DNA from: Escherichia virus TH57
Sequence record: MT446422.1
Reading direction: 5' to 3' (one strand)
Length of the DNA: 64,000 nucleotides
Made by a program: the position numbers and the translations under genes. Positions 19,010 to 26,585 of this stretch are shown in pieces. The notes beneath the pieces were generated by a model. It saw nothing but the letters and a program-made list of their open reading frames with translations, did not search any database and had not been told where the DNA came from. The first letter of the stretch is position 1, and each line of letters begins with the position of its first letter.

Positions 19010-20188
19010 ATGTCTATTGCAGATTTGAAATCCCGTTTGATTAAAGCTTCTACATCCAAAATGACTGCGACTCTTACTAAGTCCAAGTTTTTTAATGATA
19101 AAGATGTAGTTCGTACAAAAATCCCGATGCTGAACATTGCAATCAGCGGTGCACTAGATGGTGGTATGCAGTCAGGTTTGACTATTTTTGCTGGTCCGTC
19201 AAAACACTTTAAATCCAATATGGGTTTAACGATGGTCTCTGCATATATGAACAAATACCCCGAAGCAATCTGTTTGTTCTATGATTCAGAATTTGGTATC
19301 ACAGAAGCCTATCTGCGTGCAATGAAAGTAGACCCGGAGCGTGTTATCCACACACCAATCCAGTCGGTTGAACAATTGAAAGTTGATATGGTTAACCAGC
19401 TTGAAGCAATTGAGCGTGGTGAAAAAGTCATTATCTTTATTGACTCAATCGGTAACATGGCGTCAAAAAAAGAAACAGAAGATGCGATGAACGAAAAAGT
19501 CGTTGGCGATATGACTCGTGCTAAATCCCTGAAATCTCTGTTCCGTATTGTTACCCCATATTTTAGTATCAAGGATATTCCTTGTGTCGCGGTTAACCAT
19601 ACAATCGAGACGATTGAGATGTATAGCAAAACCGTTATGACCGGTGGTACAGGTGTTATGTATTCTGCGGACACCGTATTCATTATCGGCAAACGCCAGA
19701 TTAAAGAAACTGGTAAAGAACTTGAAGGTTTCCAATTTGTTCTGAATGCCGAAAAATCTCGTATGGTCAAAGAGAAAAGTAAATTCTTCATTGATGTAAA
19801 ATTCGATGGTGGTATTGACCCGTATTCTGGCCTGCTTGATATGGCAATGGAAATCGGATTTGTAGTGAAACCGAAAGTTGGTTGGTATAACCGTGAATAT
19901 CTTGATGTTGAGACCGGTGAAATGGTCCGCGAAGAAAAATCATGGCGTGCAAAAGATACTAACTGTACTGAATTCTGGGGCCCGTTGTTTAAGCACGAAC
20001 CTTTCCGTGACGCAATCAAACGCCATTACCAACTGGGTGCAATCGATAGCAATGCTGTTGTTGATGCCGAAGTTGATGCGCTTATTGCCTCCAAGGTTGA
20101 AAAATACTCTGCCCCTGAAGGTAAGGCAAAACCATCTGCGGCAGATATCGAAAACGATTTAGATATGATGGAAGACCTTGATGAATGA
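19010..20188 (+). CDS. uvsX: RecA-like recombinase UvsX
   Basis: 392 aa; Walker A GPSKHFKS; matches recalled T4 UvsX. Confidence 0.95.
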   Translation: MSIADLKSRLIKASTSKMTATLTKSKFFNDKDVVRTKIPMLNIAISGALDGGMQSGLTIFAGPSKHFKSNMGLTMVSAYMNKYPEAICLFYDSEFGITEAYLRAMKVDPERVIHTPIQSVEQLKVDMVNQLEAIERGEKVIIFIDSIGNMASKKETEDAMNEKVVGDMTRAKSLKSLFRIVTPYFSIKDIPCVAVNHTIETIEMYSKTVMTGGTGVMYSADTVFIIGKRQIKETGKELEGFQFVLNAEKSRMVKEKSKFFIDVKFDGGIDPYSGLLDMAMEIGFVVKPKVGWYNREYLDVETGEMVREEKSWRAKDTNCTEFWGPLFKHEPFRDAIKRHYQLGAIDSNAVVDAEVDALIASKVEKYSAPEGKAKPSAADIENDLDMMEDLDE

Positions 20189-20522
20189 TATCGATTTATC
20201 TGATTTAGATAATTTCGAGAAAGATGCGGAGGGAGCTAAGGCTCCTTCTGTGCCTTACTACGAAAAAAGTTTGGAGATTATCCGGCAATCCATGGGAACC
20301 GTACGACAGGAAATTCTGTTATCACTCCCTGATGGGTCCAATCACATTGTGTACGTAACCGGAATTAAAATTGAACCATCTGGAAAAGTTTCCGTTGATT
20401 TCGGCACCCCTTCTGAAGACCGCAAAGCGGAGCTTGCAGTGCATGTAGAAAAGTGTGTTACAATGCAAATACAAGATGAAATTGATAAGATTAAAATGAA
20501 AAAGAGGTGGTGGAAGTGGTAG
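20178..20522 (+). CDS. 40: gp40-like protein (head vertex assembly chaperone position)
   Basis: 114 aa ORF between uvsX and 41; assignment by position and size. Confidence 0.45.
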   Translation: MMNDIDLSDLDNFEKDAEGAKAPSVPYYEKSLEIIRQSMGTVRQEILLSLPDGSNHIVYVTGIKIEPSGKVSVDFGTPSEDRKAELAVHVEKCVTMQIQDEIDKIKMKKRWWKW

Positions 20523-21946
20523 AAACTATTTTATCCCAGCTACTCTTTAACAAGGAATATTTTGTTAAAGTCTGGCCATATCTTAATAACACATATTTTG
20601 AAAAGGGTCCAGCAAAGACCCTTTTTAATACGATTAACGAACACGTAAAAGAATATCAAGCGGTACCAACTAAGACTGCACTTGATATCGCGCTCGACAG
20701 TTCTGACCTTTCTGAAGTCGAATATGAAGGCACAAAGAAACTCTTAGGAGTCCTGGCCGATACTCCAGAAGACCAGGAATGGTTGGTCAAAGAAACCGAG
20801 AAGTATGTACAGAAGTCTGCGATGTTCAATGCCACATCCAGGATTATCGAAATCCAGAGTAATGCCGAACTTCCAAAAGATAAACGTGATAAACGAATCC
20901 CAGATATTGGGGCTATCCCTGACATCATGCGCGATGCATTGTCCATCTGTTTTGACTCTGCTCTGGGGCATGACTGGTTAAACGATTACGAAGCTCGATT
21001 CCAGACTTATCTGAACAAATCGAAGAAGGTTCCGTTCCGTATTAACATCCTGAATAAAATCACGAAGGGTGGAGTTGAGTACGGCACAGAGAACGTTTTA
21101 CTGGCCGGGACAAACGTCGGCAAATCCCTTGGACTTTGTTCGTTAGCGGCTGACTATCTTCAGACTGGTCATAACGTGCTTTATATAAGCATGGAAATGG
21201 CTGAAGAAGTATGTGCCAAACGTATTGATGCCAACTTGTTGGATGTATCTCTGGATGATATTGATGAAGGTCATGTGTCATGGGCAGAATACAAAAGTAA
21301 GATGGAAAAATGGCGTGCTTCCGGGACTCTCGGGACTCTGAAGATAAAACAATATCCAACTGGGGGCGCGCATGCGGATACCTTCCGTGCATTACTGAAC
21401 GAGTACAAACTGAAGCAAGGATTTGTACCGGATGTGATTATTGTTGACTACCTGGCAATCTGCGCAAGCTCAAGACTGAAAACGTTTACCGAAAACAGTT
21501 ACGGCCTGATTAAGATGGTTGCAGAAGAACTTCGTGGTCTGGCGGTCGAGAAAAATGTGGTCCTGTGGACTGCAGCACAGACAACCAGGGGCGCAAACGT
21601 TGCAGCTGAGATTGACATGGCTGACATCGCAGAATCCTTTGGTATTGCTCACACGGCTGACTTTATGTTGGGTGTTGTTGAGACCGAAGAATTCGCTCAA
21701 ATGGGACTGCAGTTAATCAAACAGCTTAAGTCTCGTTATGGCGATAAGAACTACTATAATAAATTCAAGATGGGTGTTAAGAAAGGTAATCAACGCTGGT
21801 ATGAGGTTGATGATGATTCAGCTCCTAAACAAGGCCCTACGGTGAAAGAAGCCACTGGTGAGATGAATCGTCAGGCTGAAATGAATAGACAAACCAGGGT
21901 CAACAGGAGCGACCTGGATGACCTTGCCGCTCAAATGAAATTTTAA
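20507..21946 (+). CDS. 41: replicative DNA helicase gp41 (DnaB-like)
   Basis: 479 aa; Walker A GTNVGKS; hexameric-helicase motifs. Confidence 0.95.
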   Translation: MVEVVETILSQLLFNKEYFVKVWPYLNNTYFEKGPAKTLFNTINEHVKEYQAVPTKTALDIALDSSDLSEVEYEGTKKLLGVLADTPEDQEWLVKETEKYVQKSAMFNATSRIIEIQSNAELPKDKRDKRIPDIGAIPDIMRDALSICFDSALGHDWLNDYEARFQTYLNKSKKVPFRINILNKITKGGVEYGTENVLLAGTNVGKSLGLCSLAADYLQTGHNVLYISMEMAEEVCAKRIDANLLDVSLDDIDEGHVSWAEYKSKMEKWRASGTLGTLKIKQYPTGGAHADTFRALLNEYKLKQGFVPDVIIVDYLAICASSRLKTFTENSYGLIKMVAEELRGLAVEKNVVLWTAAQTTRGANVAAEIDMADIAESFGIAHTADFMLGVVETEEFAQMGLQLIKQLKSRYGDKNYYNKFKMGVKKGNQRWYEVDDDSAPKQGPTVKEATGEMNRQAEMNRQTRVNRSDLDDLAAQMKF

Positions 21947-21958
21947 AATATTTTAAAA

Positions 21959-21978
21959 GGGGCTTACAGCCCCTTTTT
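21959..21978 (+). terminator. rho-independent terminator after gene 41
   Basis: GGGGC ttaca GCCCC followed by TTTTT. Confidence 0.55.
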
Positions 21979-21980
21979 CT

Positions 21981-21991
21981 TATGTTATAAT
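21981..21991 (+). promoter_or_regulatory. -10 element (TATAAT) with conserved leader upstream of ORF 22018
   Basis: TTATAATGACCCTATCAACTACTGGAGAATAAAATG, same leader family as the other cassettes. Confidence 0.4.
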
Positions 21992-22017
21992 GACCCTATC
22001 AACTACTGGAGAATAAA

Positions 22018-22335
22018 ATGAAAACTATTGATTGCAAAGCGGAATACAAAGTTTATTATCATGGCTCAAGCTCTAATGCTGGAATCCAAAATATGCTTTG
22101 CCCTCCTGATGCAACTGGTGTTCTGTCAGAAGTTGGGCGCAAGAAAAATTTAGGGCGTGTGTTTTTTACTGAAGATATTGGTTTGGCCCGTATCTATGCA
22201 GGAAGAGCAGCTCGCTCGTATGGAGGAGAACCCCGTCTTTATCGTGTGATTGCACCTGTTGACGTGGTTTGTTTAAATGATACTAAAGGTGCTACAGTTT
22301 ATCACGCTGACTGGGCCTTCTGTGAGGAAATCTAA
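22018..22335 (+). CDS. hypothetical protein (105 aa) with possible ADP-ribosyltransferase-like signature
   Basis: YHGSSS ... GRVFFTEDIGLARIYA ... CEE pattern is reminiscent of H-Y-E type ART cores; speculative. Confidence 0.45.
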   Translation: MKTIDCKAEYKVYYHGSSSNAGIQNMLCPPDATGVLSEVGRKKNLGRVFFTEDIGLARIYAGRAARSYGGEPRLYRVIAPVDVVCLNDTKGATVYHADWAFCEEI

Positions 22336-22338
22336 ATG
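22323..22338 (+). repeat. 16-nt junction repeat TGAGGAAATCTAAATG (second copy at 22536-22551)
   Basis: Identical 16-mer forms C-terminus (..EEI), stop, RBS and start at two consecutive gene boundaries. Confidence 0.7.
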
Positions 22339-22548
22339 TATAAATTAGAGAACGTAGTGTTTATTGGTTGGTTTGAAAATGGTAATATGTTTACCAAAGA
22401 AACTGCACTAGATGTTAGCGACCAAAATATGATTGAATGGGTCACAGTGCAGTATGCAGAAGTGAATAATGCGCTGGTGAAAGCCTTTGTTAATGACAAT
22501 AAAGTTTTTGAATATGATTATCGTATCCACTTATCTGAGGAAATCTAA
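22336..22548 (+). CDS. hypothetical protein (70 aa), paralog of 22549-22890
   Basis: Shares NALVKAFVNDNK motif with neighbour (NALVEAFVDDK); identical TGAGGAAATCTAAATG junction at both starts. Confidence 0.4.
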   Translation: MYKLENVVFIGWFENGNMFTKETALDVSDQNMIEWVTVQYAEVNNALVKAFVNDNKVFEYDYRIHLSEEI

Positions 22549-22890
22549 ATGGCTTTTAATCCAGAAGACCGCGTAAAAGTAACAATCAAAGTGAGTGCTG
22601 TTGGTGTACCATCTTTTGAACGTTCTAGCATGTTCCACCCAGCAGGTATTCACTGGTATGTCCAGAAGACTGCTGATAACTATAATGCACTGGTTGAAGC
22701 TTTTGTTGATGACAAGCTAATTCATAAAGTAGACATGCGTAAGGGTACTGCATTGCGTAATCTGATTTTGACCGTTGAAGCTCAACTGGTAAATGAAGAA
22801 ATCTGCCTTACTGATATTGAAGCAGCTCTTCATATTGCGCGTGCTGAATATTACAACTTGACTGGTTTTTCAGTTGAAGGCGAAAAATAA
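22549..22890 (+). CDS. hypothetical protein (113 aa)
   Basis: ORF; paralogous segment to 22336-22548. Confidence 0.45.
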   Translation: MAFNPEDRVKVTIKVSAVGVPSFERSSMFHPAGIHWYVQKTADNYNALVEAFVDDKLIHKVDMRKGTALRNLILTVEAQLVNEEICLTDIEAALHIARAEYYNLTGFSVEGEK

Positions 22891-22920
22891 GTGTACAACA
22901 AAGGGATAATGCTGTATATT
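22891..22920 (+). promoter_or_regulatory. early-type promoter cassette (GTGTACA, 18 nt, TATATT) with stem-loop
   Basis: AGGGATA..TATCCCT inverted repeat brackets the -10; leader CTATCAACTACTGAGGAGA then ATG 22949. Confidence 0.5.
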
Positions 22921-22948
22921 ATCCCTATCAACTACTGAGGAGATTGAA

Positions 22949-23242
22949 ATGAAAAAGTTATTAATTGCAGCAATTCTTACCGTAGCATCATGTGGTACAG
23001 CTCCAGTTACTGCTGGGCTTGATAAAGACCTTTGTGAGTGGTCTATGACCGCTGACCAGACTGATGTTGAACATCAGATTTATGCTGATATCATGAACAT
23101 AACTAAACGTGACCGTCCTGATATGGTTAAAGAAGTGTCTGACCAACTGGCTTCTGGTGACGTTATGCAGTATAACTATGTTCTGTATTGCGATGCTTCA
23201 TTCGACAACAGCAAAATTGTTCAATGGGTTACAGGTGAATAA
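22949..23242 (+). CDS. secreted/periplasmic small protein (97 aa), spackle-like candidate
   Basis: Cleavable signal peptide (MKKLLIAAILTVASCG), two Cys; size and topology match my recollection of T4 Sp; tentative. Confidence 0.45.
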   Translation: MKKLLIAAILTVASCGTAPVTAGLDKDLCEWSMTADQTDVEHQIYADIMNITKRDRPDMVKEVSDQLASGDVMQYNYVLYCDASFDNSKIVQWVTGE

Positions 23243-23243
23243 A

Positions 23244-23681
23244 ATGATTAACAGAAATTTGGTTATCAAAAAACTTCGCTGTAAAAATCCAAATGCGCAA
23301 GCATACAGAGTGTTTTGGAGCGACGAGATTCAATATCTGGGTTATTTTCTTGTTGACAGTGATAATAGAATTACGTTTGCTCATAAGCTTCTTAACAAAG
23401 AATTAAACCATTGGCAAGAACTTATTGCAGTCAAGTCTAAATTATTTTCATGCAATGCAATGCACCAATTGGTTTATTTTTTCGCTGATGGTATTCCTGA
23501 CAAGGTTGAGTTTGAAGGGTTTGAATTTAAAGACATCAATCCAGACAATGAATTGAATAATGATGTTGTTAATATGGGTATCCCTGGTAAGTACATCAAA
23601 AACAGTCTTTTGAAAATTCTGGAAAATCCTGTTTATTCAGTTGACGACCAAATTTTTAATGCCTTTATGAAGCGAGATTAA
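23244..23681 (+). CDS. hypothetical protein (145 aa)
   Basis: Start at ATG 23244 just after upstream stop; C-terminus DDQIFNAFMKRD shared with next ORF. Confidence 0.45.
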   Translation: MINRNLVIKKLRCKNPNAQAYRVFWSDEIQYLGYFLVDSDNRITFAHKLLNKELNHWQELIAVKSKLFSCNAMHQLVYFFADGIPDKVEFEGFEFKDINPDNELNNDVVNMGIPGKYIKNSLLKILENPVYSVDDQIFNAFMKRD

Positions 23682-23685
23682 TATG
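23643..23685 (+). repeat. 43-nt gene-end/gene-start junction repeat (second copy at 24001-24043)
   Basis: 39 of 43 nt identical; both encode DDQIFNAFMKR(D/G), stop, TAATATG start. Confidence 0.7.
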
Positions 23686-24039
23686 AGTTATTATAATTTT
23701 CTGAATTTTGAACTGGCCAGCAATAATGATGGTAATGCTCGTTATGAATTTCGTGAGCCTCGGTTTAATCAGGCGATTGGTTATATTATCGTTAAAGATG
23801 ATGTTATCATAAAGGCTCGCTCATTTATGGTAATGGATGGACCTTATGAAGATACTCGTGGATACCCATTTGATAAAAAGAATGTGCGCGATTGCGCAAT
23901 CTGGATAACTGGGAACCCTGAAATTGGGGTCATGATATCTACTGAAGCGAATGACATTCTGGAAGGGGTAGCCAAAGCTCAAGAACCGCCTACTGATATT
24001 GATGACCAGATTTTTAATGCCTTCATGAAGCGAGGTTAA
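23683..24039 (+). CDS. hypothetical protein (118 aa)
   Basis: C-terminus DDQIFNAFMKRG; 3' 43 nt nearly identical to the end of the preceding gene. Confidence 0.45.
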   Translation: MSYYNFLNFELASNNDGNARYEFREPRFNQAIGYIIVKDDVIIKARSFMVMDGPYEDTRGYPFDKKNVRDCAIWITGNPEIGVMISTEANDILEGVAKAQEPPTDIDDQIFNAFMKRG

Positions 24040-24040
24040 T

Positions 24041-24262
24041 ATGTTTGTTTTGACCCAATTCTCTAAAGCAATATATAGTTACTCTTGCCAGTGGGAAGTC
24101 TTTATTGATACTCCTTCGCCTAAGTATGGTGTTTTTGGACGAGTAACTACTCAAGCTTATGTTGCACGACCGACTAAACGTCAGATTCGTAAACTTAAAA
24201 AGGCACATCGTCAATTGATTAAAAGAAGGGAACAATATGAGTGCAATGTGTACGGGCTCTAA
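24041..24262 (+). CDS. small basic protein (73 aa), paralog of ORF 433-609
   Basis: Motif ARPTKRQIRKLKKAHRQ shared with ORF 433-609. Confidence 0.4.
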   Translation: MFVLTQFSKAIYSYSCQWEVFIDTPSPKYGVFGRVTTQAYVARPTKRQIRKLKKAHRQLIKRREQYECNVYGL

Positions 24263-24447: not shown

Positions 24448-24615
24448 ATGAAAACATTCAAAGATTTTATAAACGAAGATATGGTTGCCGGTGATGCAGG
24501 TGGAAACCCAACTAATATCGCAACAGGTACCACTTCCGGGGCAGTTGTCAATAAAGGCCCTGAACAAATCCCATCAAAAAAGCGTAAGAACAAAGACGAT
24601 AAACCTACAGTATAA
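24448..24615 (+). CDS. candidate capsid-targeted internal protein (55 aa precursor)
   Basis: N-terminus MKTFKDFINE resembles the recalled T4 internal-protein capsid targeting sequence MKTYQEFIAE, with an I-x-E cleavage context; TATAAATA 17 nt upstream; AAAGGGGG RBS. Confidence 0.5.
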   Translation: MKTFKDFINEDMVAGDAGGNPTNIATGTTSGAVVNKGPEQIPSKKRKNKDDKPTV

Positions 24616-24647: not shown

Positions 24648-25676
24648 ATGTCATATATTGATAAAGAATTTGCGGTCAGAGCTTTATCGTATCAACCACG
24701 TTATAGAGAAGTCACCGGGAGCACATTTAAAGCAAACTGTCGTTGTAAGGTTTGCGGGGACTCCCAGAAAGATTCACATAAGGCTCGATTCTGGGCGTAT
24801 ACCAATCCGTCTGATGGTGCGGTTTACGTGAAATGTTTTAACTGTGACTACTCCACGCATATAAGCAAATACATAAAAGAGTTTGAGCCGGATTTGCACC
24901 GGGAATATATGGTTGAGAAGTACAAGGAAAATGCCTTCGGTCGACAACGTAATGAAGTTGCAGAAACTCCGAAAGAACCAGAAAAAACTCCGGTTATTGA
25001 AGAGCTTGCTTTTTGCGAAAGAATCGATACTTTACCAGAAGCACATCCGATAGTTAAGTATGTGAAAAGTCGGTGTATTCCGAGCAATGTTTGGAACCGG
25101 TTATGGTTTACAAACAAATGGCCTGCATTAGTTAACTCCGTTAATCCTGGGACGTATAAGAATGAAACGAATGAACCACGCTTGGTTATTCCTATCTTCA
25201 ACGGCAAAAAAGAAATCGAATCTTTCCAAGGACGAGCTCTTCGCAAAGATGCACCACAAAAATATATCACAATCAAAGCTCACCCAGAAGCTTCCAAAGT
25301 CTATGGCGTAGACAAGATTGATGAGCGCAAGCGCGTGTGGGTAATGGAAGGTCCGATTGATAGTTTGTTTATCCCTAACAGCATTGCGATAACCGGTGGA
25401 ACATTAGCATTGGAAGCCGTTCCTTATGCTGAAACCCGAGTATGGGTAATGGACAACGAGCCAAGACATCCGGATACGATTAAACGTATGAAGAAACTCG
25501 TTGAAGCTGGCGAAGCTGTTATGTTCTGGGACAATGCACCATGGCATACGAAAGACATAAATGAGATGGTTAAATCGGAGGGTGCAACCCCTGAACAAAT
25601 CGAATCATATATGGCCGATAACGTTGCTCAAGGGCTGATGGCGAGAATGCGACTTTCGAAGTACGCAAAAGTTTAG
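24648..25676 (+). CDS. 61: DNA primase gp61
   Basis: 342 aa; N-terminal zinc ribbon (CRCKVCGDS ... CFNC); canonical position after 41. Confidence 0.92.
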   Translation: MSYIDKEFAVRALSYQPRYREVTGSTFKANCRCKVCGDSQKDSHKARFWAYTNPSDGAVYVKCFNCDYSTHISKYIKEFEPDLHREYMVEKYKENAFGRQRNEVAETPKEPEKTPVIEELAFCERIDTLPEAHPIVKYVKSRCIPSNVWNRLWFTNKWPALVNSVNPGTYKNETNEPRLVIPIFNGKKEIESFQGRALRKDAPQKYITIKAHPEASKVYGVDKIDERKRVWVMEGPIDSLFIPNSIAITGGTLALEAVPYAETRVWVMDNEPRHPDTIKRMKKLVEAGEAVMFWDNAPWHTKDINEMVKSEGATPEQIESYMADNVAQGLMARMRLSKYAKV

Positions 25677-25784: not shown

Positions 25785-25982
25785 CTATATAAGGCCGATT
25801 AATGCCAGTGAAACATCTACAACTGATTCGAGTGCGATGACTGGCAATATAACGCCATGTGCCAATGCAACAGGGGCAACAATGAAATTCCAGAGTAGAA
25901 CTAAACAGAGTATCGAAAGGACTAGAATCGTTCGCTTACGACTGCCTTTGATGGCTTGAATTAGACTAGATAGTTTTAGCAT
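25785..25982 (-). CDS. small membrane protein (65 aa) on the late strand
   Basis: Only minus-strand ORF inside the early block; AAGGAGGA RBS upstream of ATG 25982 (alternative TTG start at 26012); two hydrophobic helices. Confidence 0.4.
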   Translation of the reverse strand: MLKLSSLIQAIKGSRKRTILVLSILCLVLLWNFIVAPVALAHGVILPVIALESVVDVSLALIGLI

Positions 25983-26066
25983 ATATCCTCCTTTCTTGTA
26001 TTTATGCTTCAAACCAATATGATATAATTAACATACAAACAACATGAATTGATAAGGAAAAATATA

Positions 26067-26585
26067 ATGGCTCATTTTAATGAATGTTCACAACTGATTG
26101 CTGGTGTTGACAAAGCTGAAGAAGCTTATGACAATGCAATTATCGAAGGCACTGACCCGCTGCAGATTATGCTTGATATGCAGAAATCATTGCAGGTCCG
26201 TTTGGCTACTGAAAAACCAGAATACAACTCACATCCAGACGAATTGGCTACCGCCGGCGATGTTGTTGCATGGCTTCGTAACCAGAAAGATTATGTTGAT
26301 GATGAATTCCGTGAACTTCTAACTTCTCTCGGTGGTATGTCTAATGGCGAGAAAGCTGCATCTAGTGTATGGAAGCCTTGGAAAGCCCAACATGCTGAAT
26401 TCCGTAATCGTCGTATTGATGAGTTGTCTCCTGAAGACCAGCTCGAAATTAAATTTGAGATGATTGACATCCTGCACTTTGTTCTGAACATGTTCCATGG
26501 TCTTGGCCTGTCGGCAGAAGAAATCTTTAAATTGTATTACCTGAAAAATGCTGAAAACTTTGCTCGTCAAGACCGAGGTTATTAA
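26067..26585 (+). CDS. 56: gp56-like dCTP/dUTP pyrophosphatase (MazG-like all-alpha NTP pyrophosphatase)
   Basis: 172 aa from ATG 26067; acidic metal-binding helices (DDEFRELL, EIKFEMIDILHF); position between 61 and soc as in T4. Confidence 0.6.
   Translation: MAHFNECSQLIAGVDKAEEAYDNAIIEGTDPLQIMLDMQKSLQVRLATEKPEYNSHPDELATAGDVVAWLRNQKDYVDDEFRELLTSLGGMSNGEKAASSVWKPWKAQHAEFRNRRIDELSPEDQLEIKFEMIDILHFVLNMFHGLGLSAEEIFKLYYLKNAENFARQDRGY

Follow-up and report, generated by a model that had tools for sequence, protein, structure and literature searches.

The plus-strand open reading frame at 22949..23242 of a 64,000-nucleotide stretch of DNA from Escherichia virus TH57 (MT446422.1; the window) encodes a full-length ortholog of the T4 Spackle protein (Sp; gp61.3, rIV), which is already known and annotated in near-identical genomes. 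We estimate a probability of roughly 93% that sp of Gaprivervirus acts as a periplasmic inhibitor of the gp5 lysozyme in the manner of T4. The main gain is therefore a correct annotation, that of a T4-type early gene for which structures and a mechanism are already available. The window belongs to Gaprivervirus (Tevenvirinae), in the group of VR7, VR20, SP18 and CJ20, and the 4.2-kb stretch around sp is 95 to 97% identical to TH54, VR20, PSD2001 and other phages.

Homology to T4 Sp extends over the entire protein

The sp (spackle, gene 61.3, rIV) reading frame comprises 97 codons, with its ATG at 22949 and a TAA stop codon at 23240–23242. Its product has the same 97-aa length as T4 Sp (PDB 6X6O, 6XC0, 6XC1, 7CN6 and 7CN7; presumably UniProt P39230) and aligns with it free of gaps, residues 1–97 to residues 1–97, so that 97 of 97 residues are covered. 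Identity is 64/97 (66%) overall and 54/75 (72%) in the mature part; the 34% of residues that are changed lie chiefly in the signal peptide and in helices 3–5. The match to PDB entry 6x6o has E = 3.7e-38, and that to PHROG 1586 ("spackle periplasmic") E = 3.3e-43. The Pfam family PF25676 (T4_Spackle), which has a curated cutoff of 27 bits, is matched with 147.8 bits (E = 1.4e-43) over profile positions 1–96 of 96. The CJ20 protein QMP18611.1, annotated as spackle periplasmic protein, is 100% identical to the window protein, and VR20 Sp (YP_009207215.1) is 99% identical, one residue apart. The genes of CJ20, VR20, SP18 and VR7 occupy the same neighborhood, with essentially no difference from the window sp.

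An earlier sequence-only reading had described this frame as a secreted 97-aa, two-cysteine protein and a possible spackle-like factor. The reading frame is real, and its N terminus looks like a signal peptide. The cysteine count is right for the mature protein (C29 and C81), whereas the precursor has a third cysteine, C15, in the signal peptide. Calling the protein possibly spackle-like was an understatement, given that length, alignment, fold and gp5-contact residues all identify an sp ortholog; the alignment with T4 Sp that had been proposed as a check is the gap-free one described above.

Predicted fold and gp5-contact residues resemble those of T4 Sp

The protein, whose mature part comprises residues 23–97 (23015..23239, plus strand), was modeled with AlphaFold2 on 22 family sequences. 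The model has pLDDT values of 88 to 95 across residues 31–97 and contains five helices (residues 26–34, 37–55, 57–69, 72–81 and 87–95). When it was compared with the PDB using Foldseek, the only significant matches were T4 Spackle chains of 6x6o and 7cn6, which made up the top three, with target-normalized TM scores of 0.94 to 0.95 and rmsd values of 0.8 to 1.3 Å. The window protein thus shares with T4 Sp a five-helix bundle, here taken from the model, and the Cys29/Cys81 pair, both members of which are present. Cys29 is invariant across the family and Cys81 nearly so, being missing in one frameshifted entry (P0023). In the T4 Sp structures, the two residues form a disulfide (PMC7677548, PMC7650644).

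T4 Sp and the gp5 lysozyme domain form a 1:1 complex, in which Sp sits on a basic, horseshoe-shaped surface surrounding the gp5 substrate cleft, holding the enzyme open and partly blocking the cleft (PMC7677548, PMC7650644). The contacts comprise the main-chain carbonyls of S32–A35 and the side chains of Q37 and N76 (PMC7677548), as well as V94, G96 and E97 (PMC7650644), with the carbonyls of E93 and V94 placed against gp5 Gly322 (PMC7677548, PMC7650644). Nine of the ten contact residues that we checked are identical in the window protein (S32, M33, T34, A35, Q37, N76, V94, G96 and E97). The sole change is E93 to Trp, and Trp is also seen at this position in Klebsiella-phage Sp in the family alignment.

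The gp5 gene lies outside the 64-kb window, and the target residues were read in VR20 gp5, the lysozyme domain of which is 69% identical to that of T4. Twelve of 13 residues checked are kept there (R182, E184, L186, R187, L188, K189, W192, D193, R312, K321, G322 and R326), the single change being R181 to His. Since nearly all of the contact residues checked are kept in Sp and in VR20 gp5, the two sides of the interface appear to be conserved. The net charge of mature Sp is −9 here versus −5 in T4, and this higher acidity would suit a basic gp5 target. By analogy with T4, we infer with high confidence that the window Sp works like its T4 counterpart, although E93W and 20 further changes in mature Sp could affect how tightly or how selectively it binds. 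Conservation of the contact surface between Tequatrovirus and Gaprivervirus predicts cross-exclusion between the two genera.

Signal peptide

The signal peptide (22949..23014, plus strand) spans residues 1–22, MKKLLIAAILTVASCGTAPVTA, and is followed by GLDK. It begins with MKK and continues as LLIAAILTVASCGTAPVTA up to the Gly, in the form of a signal peptide with a hydrophobic core. The V-T-A signal peptidase I site preceding Gly23 aligns with A-M-A preceding Gly in T4; the geometry of the cleavage site at residues 20–22 is common to the two proteins, with cleavage itself proven for T4 alone. N-terminal sequencing of T4 Sp revealed that the first 22 residues are removed, yielding a periplasmic protein of 75 residues; the sequenced material, which started at Gly23, was a soluble fraction released by freeze-thaw from over-expressing cells (PMC7650644).

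Alternatives to a soluble gp5 inhibitor

The mature part differs from T4 Sp at 28% of its residues, including E93W beside the pocket that receives gp5 Gly322, and mosaic Sp variants (P0014, P0016 and P0017) show that the interface is able to diversify. Both observations would fit a divergent paralog of Sp whose target has been lost or exchanged, acting for example on another muramidase or on gp5-independent lysis timing. We consider such a paralog very improbable because nine of ten contact residues are identical, because VR20 gp5 retains 12 of the 13 residues examined, G322 included, and because sp occurs once, at the orthologous position. T4 Sp is, moreover, inactive on the endolysin T4L, which escapes inhibition because the key basic residues of gp5 and G322 are absent from it (PMC7677548, PMC7650644). 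Small size is all that speaks for a chance reading frame, or for a small secreted protein unrelated to Sp; the homology (6x6o, PF25676, PHROG 1586, 896 phage records and 23 clusters) and the fold found by Foldseek refute it and leave it a negligible probability.

A different question is raised by residues 12–15 (V-A-S-C), which resemble a lipobox. They belong to the signal peptide and precede the signal peptidase I site by eight residues. V-A-S-C15 matches the pattern that we used, [LVI][ASTVI][GAS]C ending a short signal peptide, and residues 5–15 fit what we take to be the lipoprotein rule of PROSITE PS51257 (a Lys in the first seven residues, an uncharged run and [AGS]-C). S14–C15 is invariant in the family alignment (23 of 23 members, the most divergent at 49% identity), and all 23, together with P0024, satisfy the lipoprotein pattern at Cys15. 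The codons vary (TCA, TCT or AGC for Ser; TGT or TGC for Cys) and the residues are fixed, so selection acts on the amino acids. These features would suit an Sp that is wholly or partly a lipoprotein, cut by Lgt/LspA between Ser14 and Cys15 and lipid-anchored from Cys15 rather than free from Gly23. The T4 sequencing took soluble protein only and would have missed a membrane-bound fraction (PMC7650644). The same work nonetheless found T4 Sp cleaved after residue 22 (PMC7650644), and the crystal structures and inhibition assays of T4 Sp work with the soluble 23–97 form (PMC7677548, PMC7650644). The signal peptidase I motif [AVT]-x-A at residues 20–22 is, moreover, kept equally in the same 23 members and P0024, and the distant homologs P0030 and P0035 have signal peptides that lack a cysteine. 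Among the open-access papers listed for spackle and lipoproteins, no title or abstract treats Sp as a lipoprotein; in the text examined, the term denotes a spanin. We accordingly regard a lipid anchor as unlikely. The same low likelihood applies to the more specific proposal, drawn from the sequence pattern, that Sp of the whole clade, T4 included, may be made in two forms, one lipid-anchored from Cys15 and one soluble from Gly23. If this were true, anchored Sp would put part of the inhibitor at the membrane face where incoming gp5 emerges.

Proposed action of Sp

The preferred reading, a soluble periplasmic inhibitor of gp5 lysozyme, extends the export, cleavage, binding and phenotype established or proposed for T4 to the window protein. 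The gene would probably be transcribed early, from its own promoter, and the 97-aa precursor would be exported by Sec and relieved of residues 1–22 by signal peptidase I. The resulting 75-residue, acidic, five-helix protein, with a Cys29–Cys81 disulfide, would stay in the infected cell's periplasm and bind 1:1 to gp5, the tail-spike protein of phages of the same or a related kind, at the basic patch around the substrate cleft of its lysozyme domain. With gp5 locked open and its cleft partly blocked, secondary phages would be unable to digest peptidoglycan, and Sp would thereby take part in superinfection exclusion, in resistance to lysis from without and in the lysis-inhibition (r) phenotype. 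The exclusion phenotype is disputed in T4, where overexpression of gp61.3 left the titer of wild-type T4 unchanged (PMC7650644); the in vivo role may thus be more one of lysis control than of exclusion proper.

The locus is syntenic with T4

In the window, uvsX (19010..20188) is followed by gene 40, gene 41 (helicase; 20507..21946), orf105 (105 aa; 22018..22335; PHROG 2110), dmd (22336..22548; Pfam Dmd, 72.6 bits) and, directly after dmd, orf113 (113 aa; 22549..22890), which precedes sp. Downstream of sp are orf145 (145 aa; 23244..23681), orf118 (118 aa; 23683..24039), a homolog of 61.4 (DUF7279; 24041..24262; 39% identical to T4 gp61.4), orf63, 61.1 (24448..24615) and gene 61 (primase; 24648..25676). 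Beyond gene 61 lie a minus-strand reading frame encoding a hydrophobic protein of 75 aa (25785..26012; PHROG 2024) and gene 56 (dCTPase; 26049..26585).

The sequence-only reading correctly placed sp on the gene 41 side of gene 61, but its statement that T4 differs in this respect, with the 61.x genes between 61 and 56, was mistaken. In the T4 record (NC_000866), the order along the direction of transcription is uvsX-40-41-dmd-61.4-sp-61.2-61.1-61-dam-56, with sp between 41 and 61 and near dmd and the 61.x genes, as in the window. The placement of sp is the same in RB5, VR20 and the Klebsiella phage PKO111, and the supposed positional anomaly is refuted. The window locus is therefore syntenic with T4, but it has more small reading frames (nine in the 41–61 interval versus five in T4), a displaced 61.4 homolog, which lies downstream of sp rather than upstream as in T4, and no dam between 61 and 56, where T4 has one.

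A putative early promoter and a conserved leader precede sp

A Shine–Dalgarno sequence, GAGGAG (22937..22942, plus strand), is located 6 nt before the ATG, within a leader, AACTACTGAGGAGATT, that is invariant among the aligned sp upstream regions of the window, VR20, CJ20, RB5 and T4. Alignment also reveals a candidate early promoter at 22891..22920 (plus strand), consisting of a −35 element GTGTAC, an 18-nt spacer and a −10 element TATATT; a consensus scan reports the site as TGTACA-17-TATATT at 22892..22920. The −35 hexamer is GTGTAC in the window versus GTTTAC in T4, RB5, VR20 and CJ20, each accompanied by a TA-rich −10 element. Both the promoter-like site and the leader are thus conserved between T4 sp and the window. 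The GGAG within the Shine–Dalgarno sequence is presumably the kind of site that is cut by RegB, and this upstream region, together with the repeat of its −10 element and leader past the gene 41 terminator, may resemble the stem-loop and early-promoter cassettes of T4-type phages. An early promoter for sp fits the description of T4 Sp as an early gene product (PMC7677548).

We considered a MotA-box middle promoter for sp, for which TGCTGTA was the candidate; by eye, this heptamer is wrongly spaced relative to any −10 element, and we dropped it because the early-type GT(T/G)TAC...TATATT site aligns with T4. The hairpin scan returned a 9 to 10 bp hairpin, AGGGATAAT...ATTATCCCT, at 22902..22926, which overlaps the promoter spacer and −10 element. 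The fold energy of the 76 nt around it is not exceptional (z = −1.34), and any role of the hairpin is uncertain for that reason. It was rejected as an intrinsic terminator, since no T-run follows it on the plus strand and given the same z value.

The −10 element and leader of the sp site are repeated at 21986–22008, past the gene 41 terminator. The region after gene 41 (21955..22008) contains a strong, GC-rich hairpin of 10 bp with T-runs on both strands, resembling a bidirectional terminator. This hairpin overlaps a TG-extended promoter-like sequence, CTTACA-17-TATAAT, whose −10 element and leader match those upstream of sp.

Breadth and variation of the Sp family

A tblastn search found Sp homologs in 896 phage records, named chiefly for Escherichia, Klebsiella and Shigella hosts, and a word-indexed search returned 23 Sp clusters at 90% identity, all with PF25676. 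When 1.84 billion representatives were searched exhaustively with a profile, just 15 hits came back. Five of these are long proteins with at least five matched stretches each (P0027, P0029, P0031, P0032 and P0036) and appear spurious; P0029 and P0036, on reading, proved to be repetitive and to have no relationship to Sp. Genuine distant homologs are P0030 and P0035, which lead to Yersinia phage MHG19, to which P0030 is close, and to a few Erwinia and Providencia phages. The Sp family is thus small and restricted to phages named for Enterobacterales-type hosts.

Four family members (P0014, P0016, P0017 and P0023) have the same signal peptide as the window Sp, and three of them also share its last 15 residues. 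The central segment of the four, approximately residues 33–75, is swapped for a divergent version with insertions (CEWSTGQTGDATQ...), which alters the M33–Q37 gp5-contact region. This pattern suggests a mosaic diversification of inhibitor specificity within this group of phages.

Neighboring reading frames

The site of T4 61.2 (AdfA, anti-DarT factor; 208 aa) is occupied in the window by two shorter reading frames, orf145 and orf118, which share with AdfA its C-terminal tail only. Outside the tail, BLAST shows no relationship between the two or of either to AdfA. The tail reads S-V-DDQIFNAFMKRD in orf145 and D-I-DDQIFNAFMKRG in orf118, compared with SIDDQIFNAFMNRG in T4 AdfA. At the DNA level, it corresponds to a 45-nt direct repeat, 91% identical, that covers the stop codon and the next ATG. 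The tail could be a shared partner-binding element or a recombination joint for the swapping of modules.

Residues 30–65 of orf113 weakly resemble Dmd, matching PHROG 2102 with E = 8.8e-6 and Pfam Dmd with 19 bits, which is below the cutoff; the frame may represent a dmd paralog that has diverged and is joined to a second domain (PHROG 23762). We rejected orf113 as the equivalent of 61.4, as it has no similarity to T4 gp61.4, the real homolog of which is encoded at 24041..24262. The first gene past the gene 41 terminator, orf105, has no Pfam match and no counterpart in the T4 41–61 interval, and its annotation is inconsistent among some relatives.

Imm, the other early superinfection-exclusion product of T4, also has a homolog in the window and is unrelated to Sp. 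Imm is an inner-membrane protein that blocks DNA entry and does not inhibit the tail lysozyme. The imm homolog (18028..18270; Pfam PF14373 Imm_superinfect, E = 1e-17) lies directly after the DNA polymerase gene 43, and next comes a hydrophobic reading frame of 47 aa (18267..18410). It is followed by a frame at 18394..18924 that carries a classic lipoprotein signal (MKKLAIAAVMLLSGC) and matches no Pfam family. Directly after this frame comes uvsX, so the interval between 43 and uvsX lacks the T4 genes 42 and beta-gt. At the other end of the module, the minus-strand frame at 25785..26012 runs against all of its neighbors and takes the place of the RB5 gene annotated as dam.1.
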